From: an uncultured Bacillales bacterium
GTDB taxonomy: Bacteria > Bacillota_I > Bacilli_A > RF39 > UBA660
Length of the DNA: 64,000 nt
Assembly: GCA_946536225.1 (NCBI GenBank)
Contig: CAMNEE010000002.1
Location: 239,523-303,522, forward strand
Direction of reading: 5' to 3'
Position 1 is the stretch's first letter. Each line of letters opens with the position of its first letter. Positions 21,534-23,173 of the stretch are shown piece after piece. Below the pieces are notes generated by a model. That model searched no databases. It was given only the letters and a program-made list of their open reading frames with translations, and was not told the origin of the DNA. A program made the translations under genes and the position numbers.

Positions 21534-22133
21534 GTGAGAGAGTCGATAGGTGCAACTTGGATATTTGGAATTGTAATTGTATTTGTTACTATCTTTACAG
21601 GTTACTTAGCATTCTCTGTCAACTTTTCAAAAGCATTTGCGTTTAAAGACGAAATAATAGATGTTTTAGAAAAGTATGATGGGCCAGGAGATAGTATAAT
21701 TGGAGACATTGGAAGTGGAACAACAACATCGCTAGAAGAAATTGCAAATTATACTAAAGAAATTAATTATGGATCTAAAGGAAGTTGCGAAACAGTATTA
21801 AAACGTCTATATGGCGATGATGCTTATAATAGAAAGAGAAACTCTATCATGGGTGTAAATATATCAGTTATTCCAAAACCCAATGGTACATATGCATCAG
21901 TAACAAGAGGTGATAGCTTTTTAGGAGATGAGTTATTTCATTTCTGTTTAGTAAGAGAAGGACAAACAGGAAGTGATAATAATGCCTATTTAAGTTTTTC
22001 AAGTTATCGAGTAATTACATTCTTTAGTATTAATATTAATATCTTAAGAATGTTCGGTAATTATTATGTATCTGGAGAAACAAAGAATATATCTTATCCA
22101 AAAGATGCTTTTTTAGAGGAAGTGAGAGAATGA
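21534..22133 (+). CDS. N-terminally anchored protein, paralog B (candidate TadE-like/pseudopilin-like)
   Basis: GTG start with RBS ggtaggtga. MRESIGATWIFGIVIVFVTIFTGYLAF... C-terminal GETKNISYPKDAF. Confidence 0.5.
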   Translation: MRESIGATWIFGIVIVFVTIFTGYLAFSVNFSKAFAFKDEIIDVLEKYDGPGDSIIGDIGSGTTTSLEEIANYTKEINYGSKGSCETVLKRLYGDDAYNRKRNSIMGVNISVIPKPNGTYASVTRGDSFLGDELFHFCLVREGQTGSDNNAYLSFSSYRVITFFSININILRMFGNYYVSGETKNISYPKDAFLEEVRE

Positions 22134-23173
22134 ACGTAATAGTAGTTAATCAAAATAGTAAAATGTTAGAACAATTAGACATCGATATTATTAAGAAGAT
22201 AGATGGACAATATTCAGTAAGTGAATTACTAAGTAAGTTTGTTAATCTATACTTTGAAAAATTAATAATAGATGTAACAGCAATTGAAAATTATAAAAGC
22301 CCAGAAGTAATGGCTGATTTTGCAAAAAGAATAGATGCAAGTAGAGTAATCTTACTTTTAAGTGGAGAACCTGAAGTAACAAGTACTCCATATTTAGCAA
22401 ATTTAGTTAGAAACGGTATTTATAATTTTACAAGAAATATAGAAGGTATTAAGTTCTTATATGGAACACCAAATACACTTGATAATGTTAAGTACTTACT
22501 TGAGGAAAATAAAGTACAAAATGTAGCTCCAGCTGTTTCCACTGGATTTGTAAGCCCAGCACCAATCCCAACAGGTGGATCTATGCCAACACCAGGTGTT
22601 AGTACAGTGCAAACTCCAACAATGTCAGGAGCAGGTATTACTTATGGTCTTGGAAATAAAAAGATAATTGGTTTATCAAATATGACAGTACATGCTGGAG
22701 CATCTACTTTAACAAATATGATGGTTAGACAACTTAACAGTCATAATATTCCTGCTAAAGGAATTGAAATGAGTAGACAAGACTTACTATATTATAGAAG
22801 TGATAATTTAATTTCATGTATGAATAGAATTGATCTTGAAAGAGCATTAAGAGACTTCAAAGATATTCCAGCAATCATTATTGATTTAAATGAATTCCCT
22901 GAAGCATCAAAATTCTGCAGTGACATACTATATTTAGTAGAACCATCATTCATAAGATTGACAAAATGTATTAAAAGAAATAAGAATGCATTTATTGAAA
23001 AAAAGGATGAAAAAATAGTATTAAATATGAGTTTTGTTTCAGAAGATGAAGTATATGATTTTGAAATTGAAACTGGTGTAAAAGTATTCGAAAACATCCC
23101 ACCAATTAACGATAGAGACACTGATTCTCCTGAAATTAATAGATTACTTTCAAAATTAGGATTTAATATGTAA
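22130..23173 (+). CDS. CpaE/TadZ-like protein: pseudo-receiver domain fused to a degenerate MinD/ParA-type ATPase domain
   Basis: N-terminal REC-like fold with NQN in place of the acidic DD pocket. C-terminal MTVHAGASTLTNM aligns with the CpaE P-loop KGGVGASTVAHNL but lacks the Lys and both Gly. Walker-B-like AIIIDLNEFPEA. Confidence 0.5.
   Translation: MNVIVVNQNSKMLEQLDIDIIKKIDGQYSVSELLSKFVNLYFEKLIIDVTAIENYKSPEVMADFAKRIDASRVILLLSGEPEVTSTPYLANLVRNGIYNFTRNIEGIKFLYGTPNTLDNVKYLLEENKVQNVAPAVSTGFVSPAPIPTGGSMPTPGVSTVQTPTMSGAGITYGLGNKKIIGLSNMTVHAGASTLTNMMVRQLNSHNIPAKGIEMSRQDLLYYRSDNLISCMNRIDLERALRDFKDIPAIIIDLNEFPEASKFCSDILYLVEPSFIRLTKCIKRNKNAFIEKKDEKIVLNMSFVSEDEVYDFEIETGVKVFENIPPINDRDTDSPEINRLLSKLGFNM

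Follow-up and report, generated by a model that had tools for sequence, protein, structure and literature searches.

What does a cell do with a protein that is predicted to fold like a MinD/ParA-type ATPase but that has lost the lysines with which this superfamily binds phosphates? The question is raised by a gene, here called TZ (a TadZ/CpaE-like gene), at 22130..23173 on the forward strand of a 64,000-nucleotide stretch of DNA from an uncultured Bacillales bacterium (contig CAMNEE010000002.1; the whole stretch is referred to below as the window). An original prediction, made from the letters of the window, had described its product as a CpaE/TadZ-like protein degenerate in both of its domains. 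We confirmed the open reading frame (ORF), which starts with ATG and encodes 347 amino acids (aa), and all the motifs quoted in that prediction were found in place. We consider it fairly likely that TZ is a TadZ/CpaE-class cytoplasmic organiser of a lineage-specific surface apparatus, a Tad-like type IV filament together with a machine resembling a type IV secretion system (T4SS).

Fold and pocket residues of TZ

The gene is not a chance reading frame, since an identical TZ protein is encoded, in constant gene order, on 23 public contigs (including sheep-rumen assemblies), homologues are numerous (1125 at an expectation value (E) <=1e-3 with the window TZ as query, 7270 with a divergent member as query), and the ratio of non-synonymous to synonymous substitution rates (dN/dS) between the window and a 91%-identical relative is 0.10. 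A profile search with HMMER over 1.84 billion representatives returned 598 clusters at 50% identity, 189 of them with E<=1e-30. Relatives of TZ are encoded in 295 GTDB species representatives, where their names are all 'hypothetical'. These entries are metagenome-assembled genomes that carry the labels Bacilli, Mollicutes, Tenericutes or Firmicutes CAG:582, which we take to correspond to the RF39-type lineage. The TZ family is a large, unnamed family of uncultured gut and rumen Bacilli that is missing from Pfam and NCBIfam. Five members of 439-523 aa (P0247, P0281, P0288, P0300 and P0327) have 100-200 additional residues, and the profile aligns with them in two stretches, which implies very long inserts between the two domains. 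Another member, P0134, was named 'pyrimidine operon attenuation protein/uracil phosphoribosyltransferase' by the Joint Genome Institute (JGI), which looks like a misannotation. A 109-aa antisense ORF (22792..23121, reverse strand) was not accepted as a gene because it is situated within the conserved coding region of TZ, and it is probably spurious.

The AlphaFold model, built from a 30-sequence alignment, has a mean predicted local distance difference test (pLDDT) score of 80.8 and consists of two confident domains joined by a disordered linker (residues 127-175). As modelled, the N-terminal domain has a receiver fold and the C-terminal domain a MinD/ParA fold, and the fold matches of TZ include CpaE N-terminal domains and TadZ structures, so that the two-domain build originally proposed is borne out by predicted structure. 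All conservation counts given here refer to 84 sequences, namely the window TZ and those of 83 related loci. In the receiver-like domain, position 7 is Asn in all 84 and position 9 is Asn in 43 and Tyr in 40, and the acidic Mg2+-binding pair that follows strand 1 of receivers is absent. The Thr/Ser that receivers carry after strand 4 is absent as well (the residue at position 78 may be D, N, G, S or E), as is the Lys after strand 5 (position 102 is Arg in most of the sequences and variable in the wider family), and the window TZ gave no match to the receiver family PF00072 in the Pfam scan. Invariant, too, are N99 in strand 5 and, where strand 3 ends, D48 and T50; from topology, not from a superposition, we infer that D48 is the equivalent of CheY Asp57. 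The claim that an NQN triplet had replaced the acidic pocket is therefore correct for the pair after strand 1, but the pocket was not wholly lost, given the invariance of D48. The best-conserved surface of the domain is the former active-site face, which suggests that this face may have become a binding surface.

In the C-terminal domain, the stretch M185-T-V-H-A-G-A-S-T193 (22682-22708) lies between a predicted strand (178-184) and a predicted helix (191-204), which is the site of the P-loop. It can be laid without a gap on K11-G-G-V-G-K-T-T18 of Escherichia coli MinD, with T186 on K11, V187 on G12, H188 on G13, G190 on G15, A191 on K16 and S192 on T17. Lys or Arg occurs at neither of the two lysine positions (186 and 191) in any sequence: Thr (81) or Ser (3) stands at position 186, and Ala (74) or Ser (10) at position 191. 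Position 188 is more varied (H 61, Q 11, G 6, S 4, N 2), G190 is invariant, and positions 192-193 are always Ser or Thr. Compared with the deviant Walker A motif KGGxxK[ST], the window TZ lacks both lysines and both glycines, and compared with the TadZ Walker A consensus K/RGGXGXS/T (bioRxiv 10.64898/2026.07.08.737194) it keeps only the G-x-S/T part. Since that published consensus shows the GK[ST] lysine to be missing already in ordinary TadZ, what is new in the TZ family is that the signature K/R and both glycines have gone.

Further along, in I249-I-I-D-L-N-E-F-P-E258, Asp252 ends a predicted hydrophobic strand and is placed by hhalign on D120 of MinD (E 0.059). Five residues, E213, D252, N254, P272 and E314, are invariant, and D218 (83/84), E271 and N299 (82/84 each) nearly so. 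Because the sites of both the receiver pocket and the nucleotide pocket are invariant or nearly invariant in the 84 sequences, they must be under selection for something, and the nucleotide pocket looks remodelled, not decayed. The original prediction had pointed to a retained GAST stretch and a Walker-B-like IIIDLNEFPE; both are present, and GAST falls at the P-loop site, on G15-K16-T17-T18 of MinD, with no indel. Its reading of a lost P-loop Lys and Gly agrees with the complete lack of Lys and Arg, although the loss of the GK[ST] lysine is nothing special, canonical TadZ being without it too. 'Doubly degenerate' describes the loss of motif residues in both domains well, but neither domain has simply decayed, as the invariant pocket sites indicate.

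The members of the family also differ in their C-terminus. The tail K.K(I/L)LGLFKF, which resembles the membrane-targeting sequence KKGFLQRLFGG of MinD, occurs in 29 of 36 members linked to motor genes versus none of 25 members of the window type (those with dnaI and a cadherin-like gene upstream). The window TZ ends in ...KLGFNM, without the C-terminal amphipathic helix reported for CpaE. A hydrophobic-moment calculation on the tails gave no discrimination and was dropped.

Gene context in relatives and in the window

Since sequence methods give no link to MinD, ParA or CpaE, the case for homology is built on predicted structure, on topology and on gene context. Within the close clade (loci L001-L035, 46-65% identity), the conserved order is RNase J, dnaD, dnaI, the cadherin-like surface protein, sA, a small gene (where present), sB, TZ, sC and trmB, where sA and sB denote minor-pilin-like genes and sC a VirB2-like gene (Table 1). 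In the divergent half of the family (34-39% identity) these housekeeping neighbours are lost, and sA/sB-like genes lie directly upstream of TZ and an sC-like gene downstream, usually adjacent to it. Overall, an sB-like gene directly precedes TZ in nearly all of the 83 loci and an sC-like match follows it in most, usually adjacent; a T2SSE ATPase is encoded upstream in 36 loci and a VirB4 protein downstream in about 20.

One divergent locus, L039 (3235-16330), encodes, in this order, a large surface protein, a DUF5411 protein (PF17424, 7e-48), a CpaB/RcpC-like protein, a T2SSE ATPase (PF00437, 2e-25), two polytopic membrane proteins, a 71-aa pilin-like protein, an sB-like protein, TZ, a T4SS-pilin-like protein, a 350-aa protein with a T4SS_pilin domain, a VirB6-like protein, two small proteins, a VirB4-like ATPase and an M23 peptidase. 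The NCBIfam models nearest to the T2SSE ATPase are VirB11 and TIGR03819 ('TadA family conjugal transfer-associated ATPase'), and the VirB6-like protein has weak matches to the Mycoplasma integrated conjugative element (ICE) families Mbov_0396/MMCAP2_0566 and to pLS20_p028. This succession of ATPase, membrane-protein and pilin-like genes in relatives puts TZ where the accessory ParA/MinD-type protein stands in a Tad-like cluster. L039 and about 35 other loci have a hybrid cluster, in which a Tad-like half (CpaB-like, T2SSE ATPase, two membrane proteins and pilin-like genes) is joined to a conjugation-type half (VirB2-like, VirB6-like and VirB4 genes plus an M23 hydrolase); the stretches of these clusters that were read showed neither a relaxase nor a coupling protein. 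We would regard the small genes as putative pilins on the strength of their conserved leader MK(D/E)A(T/A)GE, their hydrophobic helix and their small size; the leader of sA and sB, MR(E/D)(S/A)IG, is similar to it.

Members of the close clade differ in how much of this cluster they retain. In L018 the genes for CpaB, the ATPase and the two membrane proteins remain upstream; in L009 and L017 those for VirB6 and VirB4 remain downstream. Most loci have, between sA and sB, a small and highly conserved pilin-like gene, whose product (MKDATGELSMTAVAVVAIAAI...) has a Cys-rich tail (65 matches; for example L006:7097-7393, L018:7186-7440 and L088:5129-5377). It is missing from the window, where the gap between sA and sB is 9 nt (21524-21534) and no such ORF was found anywhere; the 91%-identical relative is also without it, and a 74%-identical relative has an 82-aa gene at this place.

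A search with the ATPase of L018 located a stand-alone motor module in related organisms (e.g. L095:8358-13149 and L103:8353-13298), which comprises FtsW/RodA, a metallophosphoesterase, an Rce1-like protein, two CpaB-like proteins, the T2SSE ATPase and two membrane proteins, in that order. The module has housekeeping surroundings and is far from any pilin or TZ gene, and one of these loci shares EIIB (69% identity)-RDD-YidD synteny with the window (30478-32467). A split layout, with the motor at a separate locus, therefore exists in the clade of the window, so that the absence of a motor from the window says little about the whole genome, and the organism may well encode one elsewhere.

The window itself is chromosomal DNA of a low-G+C bacterium (24-33% G+C) and carries leuS, two RNase J genes, dnaD, dnaI, trmB, tyrS, murT-gatD, ftsA, ftsZ and lysS. 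The start codon of TZ overlaps the stop codon of sB (ATGA) and is preceded by a purine-rich ribosome-binding stretch, GAGGAAGTGAGAGA; the two genes are, to judge from this arrangement, translationally coupled. All five genes of the cluster (surface protein, sA, sB, TZ and sC) are under purifying selection. With the same relative as above, dN/dS is 0.10 for sA, 0.12 for sB and 0.13 for the surface protein, compared with 0.03-0.05 for DnaD, DnaI and TrmB; sC, at 0.35, evolves faster than its neighbours. The weak family matches of sC are to PF18895 T4SS_pilin (E 0.0037) and to NF045849, the Mbov_0395 pilin-like conjugal transfer protein (E 0.0077), and the signals on either side of the gene (Table 1) indicate that it may be transcribed alone and at a high level. 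The surface protein, which is syntenic in the close clade, matches PF12733 with an E of 7e-4, under the family threshold.

Table 1. Features of the TZ gene and of its neighbours, in coordinates of the window
Feature	Position	Strand	Basis or remarks
Surface protein, adhesin-like	19719..20951	+	Signal peptide, Pro/Thr-rich spacer, cadherin-like beta-sandwich, C-terminal membrane anchor
sA, minor-pilin-like membrane protein, 163 aa, start MRQSIAGAW	21033..21524	+	Paralogue of sB; other annotators give the same 163-aa gene
sB, minor-pilin-like membrane protein, 199 aa, GTG start	21534..22133	+	(M)RESIGATW, then hydrophobic helix
TZ (TadZ/CpaE-like gene)	22130..23173	+	ORF; family of 598 clusters at 50% identity; dN/dS 0.10
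N-terminal pseudo-receiver domain, residues 1-126	22130..22507	+	Five predicted strand-helix units (CheY-like fold)
N7-Q8-N9 in place of receiver acidic pair	22148..22156	+	After predicted strand 2-6
D48-V-T50, end of strand 3 (45-48), phospho-acceptor position of receivers	22271..22279	+	Predicted strands
Linker, residues 127-175, Pro/Thr/Ser/Gly-rich, disordered	22508..22654	+	pLDDT <50; variable in length and sequence among family members
C-terminal MinD/ParA-fold domain, residues 176-347	22655..23170	+	Predicted structure
Degenerate Walker A loop G181-L-S-N-M-T186-V-H188-A-G190-A-S-T193	22670..22708	+	Conservation in 84 sequences
Walker B-like strand A248-I-I-I-D252-L-N254	22871..22891	+	D252 and N254 in 84/84; predicted strand 248-252
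Putative sigma-70 promoter before sC, 12/12 consensus (TTGACA, 18 nt, TATAAT)	23201..23230	+	Consensus match only
sC, VirB2/T4SS-pilin-like two-helix membrane protein, 113 aa	23257..23598	+	Weak family matches
Terminator-like stem-loop and T-run after sC	23621..23642	+	Sequence

Some other genes of the window deserve mention. The two RNase J paralogues lie 12 kb apart (1955-3694, reverse strand; 15506-17233, forward strand). Directly after tyrS, 30072-30449 encodes a receiver protein that stands alone and whose DD...D...K pattern is intact, and a hybrid histidine kinase with a C-terminal receiver is encoded some 30 kb further downstream (60665-62695); no link joins either of them to the TZ cluster. 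A 364-aa protein encoded at 25071-26165 is almost entirely of Glu/Lys/Asp-rich low complexity and has no family match; its position, between the genes for a putative lipoprotein and a YtxH-like protein, is conserved across the clade.

Proposed role and its alternatives

By analogy with CpaE and TadZ, TZ would most likely organise the cytoplasmic face of the filament or T4SS-like machine of its lineage. With the signature lysine missing, it would be unable to form the usual ATP-sandwich dimer of MinD, ParA and TadZ, and would act as a scaffold either independently of nucleotide or with a non-canonical ligand, contacting motor and membrane components through the former receiver pocket (N7, D48, T50 and N99) and the remodelled nucleotide pocket. 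The scaffold originally proposed, which would no longer hydrolyse ATP yet still dimerise or localise, is plausible in this light. In the clade of the window, purifying selection and the coupling to a minor-pilin-like gene make it most likely that TZ still serves the apparatus, whose motor module would lie at another chromosomal site as it does in related organisms.

Several results weigh against assigning TZ to this role. The window TZ matched nothing in Pfam, NCBIfam or PHROGs at permissive thresholds (E<=1 for Pfam and NCBIfam), 46 family members scanned singly against curated models at E<=10 gave noise only, scans of the neighbours of TZ were of no use either, and sequence searches of the PDB at E<=10, whether with the single TZ or with profiles A1 and A4, yielded either nothing or matches at chance level. 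When the TZ family was aligned by hhalign with four MinD sequences from PDB output, the local match was non-significant (E 0.059); the sole stretch aligned, IIIDLN...LYLVEPS with FIVCDSPAG...AIITTNPEV, is in the expected register. The 150 matches listed in the HMMER search were all TZ family members, with no bridging outgroup among them, and there is no significant link by sequence between the TZ family and MinD, ParA or CpaE. The term 'Tad-like' itself draws chiefly on the ATPase, on gene order and on features of the proteins: the CpaB/RcpC-like protein of L039 reaches only about 1e-4 in Pfam and in TIGR03177, below threshold in both, and the pilin-like genes matched no known family in our scans. 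An identification of the two membrane proteins after the ATPase as TadB/TadC was not retained, as they match nothing in Pfam, NCBIfam or the PDB and their mutual similarity is weak. The window holds no gene for a secretion ATPase, platform, VirB4, VirB6 or major pilin-like protein. Finally, the conserved residues of the Mg/phosphate-binding type (S192, T193, E213, D218 and D252) speak against a completely dead pocket.

These last residues are the basis of the view that TZ still binds a nucleotide or another phospho-ligand and works as a switch, perhaps as a slow nucleoside triphosphatase, with Thr186 and His188 in place of the lysines, which we judge unlikely. The loop has kept its length and its invariant G190, Ser or Thr occupies the Mg-ligand positions 192-193, and E213 and D252/N254 (84/84), D218 (83/84), T186 (81/84) and His188 (61/84) are conserved to varying degrees; moreover, canonical TadZ binds ATP despite the missing GK[ST] lysine (PMC6668835, PMC13170226). 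However, no member has either of the positive charges by which the superfamily binds the beta- and gamma-phosphates, bulky residues replace the two glycines that shape the loop, and His188 itself is Q, G, S or N in 23 of the 84 sequences. The lack of motor genes in the window lends itself to another view. It is doubtful that the window species lacks motor, platform and major pilin altogether; in such a species, TZ, without lysines and tail, and the adhesin-like, the two minor-pilin-like and the VirB2-like proteins would form a motor-less membrane or surface module maintained by selection, with TZ as a pseudo-ATPase of MinD/ParA fold that had been recruited as a stand-alone organiser once the machine it served was lost. 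For the clade as a whole we are slightly more sceptical still that TZ is an orphan co-opted into a module of this kind. The absence of ATPase, platform and pilin-like genes over 64 kb would fit, as would the loss of the tail in all 25 members of the window type, the lack of the small pilin-like gene in the window and its 91%-identical relative when the 74%-identical one has it, and the selection still acting on all five genes. Against it, related organisms have the motor module at a separate locus, and L018, L009 and L017, of the same clade, still have adjacent motor or VirB4 genes.

Two further explanations were weighed. TZ could be a positioning protein of the MinD/ParA type for cell division or DNA, given its predicted fold, its location just downstream of dnaD and dnaI and the presence of ftsA and ftsZ 12 kb away, but the link with dnaD/dnaI holds in one clade only, divergent members of the family lacking these genes and having pilin-like and ATPase genes adjacent, and TZ is without the ATP-dependent dimer motif that MinD/ParA gradients need; we consider this role very improbable. 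That TZ is a functionless, decaying remnant of an ICE is scarcely credible: cluster genes have been lost in the lineage of the window, and the T4SS-like neighbours of relatives do resemble Mycoplasma ICE proteins, but the ORF is intact on 23 contigs, its dN/dS is low, and it has been kept at one chromosomal site at 46-65% identity, a range similar to that of DnaD and DnaI. TZ as a TadZ/CpaE-class organiser is the reading we retain. TadZ and CpaE are thought to need ATP-mediated dimerisation to form a ring around the pilus motor, and a family that has kept its fold, its place in the cluster and many of the pocket residues while its phosphate-binding lysines and glycines are gone is a natural test of whether scaffolding needs a nucleotide. 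The family also gives a name to an unannotated protein common in uncultured gut and rumen Bacilli, and marks a Tad-like/T4SS-like cluster that current models recognise only in part.

Comparison with TadZ, CpaE and related systems

TadZ of Eubacterium rectale (PDB 3FKQ) and CpaE of Caulobacter crescentus are ParA/MinD-class organisers of Tad (type IVc) pili, and TZ has their two-domain build. It differs from them in the T-x-H that replaces the signature K/R and both glycines, and in that no sequence model detects it. In tad loci, tadZ usually lies before tadA, whereas the TZ gene of relatives comes after the ATPase and platform genes; the window TZ lacks both the tail and nearby tad genes. Indeed, none of the components of a tad locus (TadA/CpaF, TadB/TadC, Flp pilin, TadE/F) is encoded in the 64 kb of the window, and only the ATPase is matched, in 36 related loci. 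CpaE has been modelled as six dimers ringing the CpaF hexamer, with the receiver domains bridging dimers and a C-terminal amphipathic helix on the membrane (PMC13170226), and TadZ has been described as a low-activity ATP-binding hub (PMC6668835).

Compared with MinD, ParA, ParF, BcsQ and FleN, the SIMIBI ATPases whose Walker A motif is deviant, TZ shares the predicted fold and the Walker B Asp but is without KGGxxK[ST]; its compact core of ~170 residues is closest in size to the small ParF-type proteins, and it adds a receiver-like domain. The flp-tad locus of Mycobacterium tuberculosis, with Ssd (Rv3660c), is likewise a Gram-positive Tad-like cluster in which a CpaE-like protein stands beside a VirB11/TadA-like ATPase (TIGR03819), a model against which the ATPase of TZ relatives scores 97.5 bits, below threshold. 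Actinobacterial CpaE-like proteins keep an R/KGG-type loop; for the window TZ, no model of NCBIfam gives a match at E<=1. Downstream, the relatives' clusters are likewise composed of VirB2-like, VirB6-like and VirB4-like proteins as in pXO2/pLS20-type systems and in Mycoplasma ICEs (Mbov_0395/0396), the matches being weak, and the relatives' ATPase is ~30% identical to CpaF/VirB11 proteins of pXO2 and of a Listeria plasmid; the conjugation regions of pXO2 and of the Listeria plasmid in which these nearest plasmid ATPases are encoded contain no TZ homologue. A literature search (RF39, Tad, conjugation, pilus) turned up no publication on a system of this sort in the lineage. Two features that define TadZ and CpaE, the K/RGG motif and recognition by sequence models, are absent from TZ, as is, in the window, the tad-type locus. 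Nevertheless, TZ almost certainly descends from the TadZ/CpaE class, and it extends the known TadZ/CpaE theme and is not a new kind of system.

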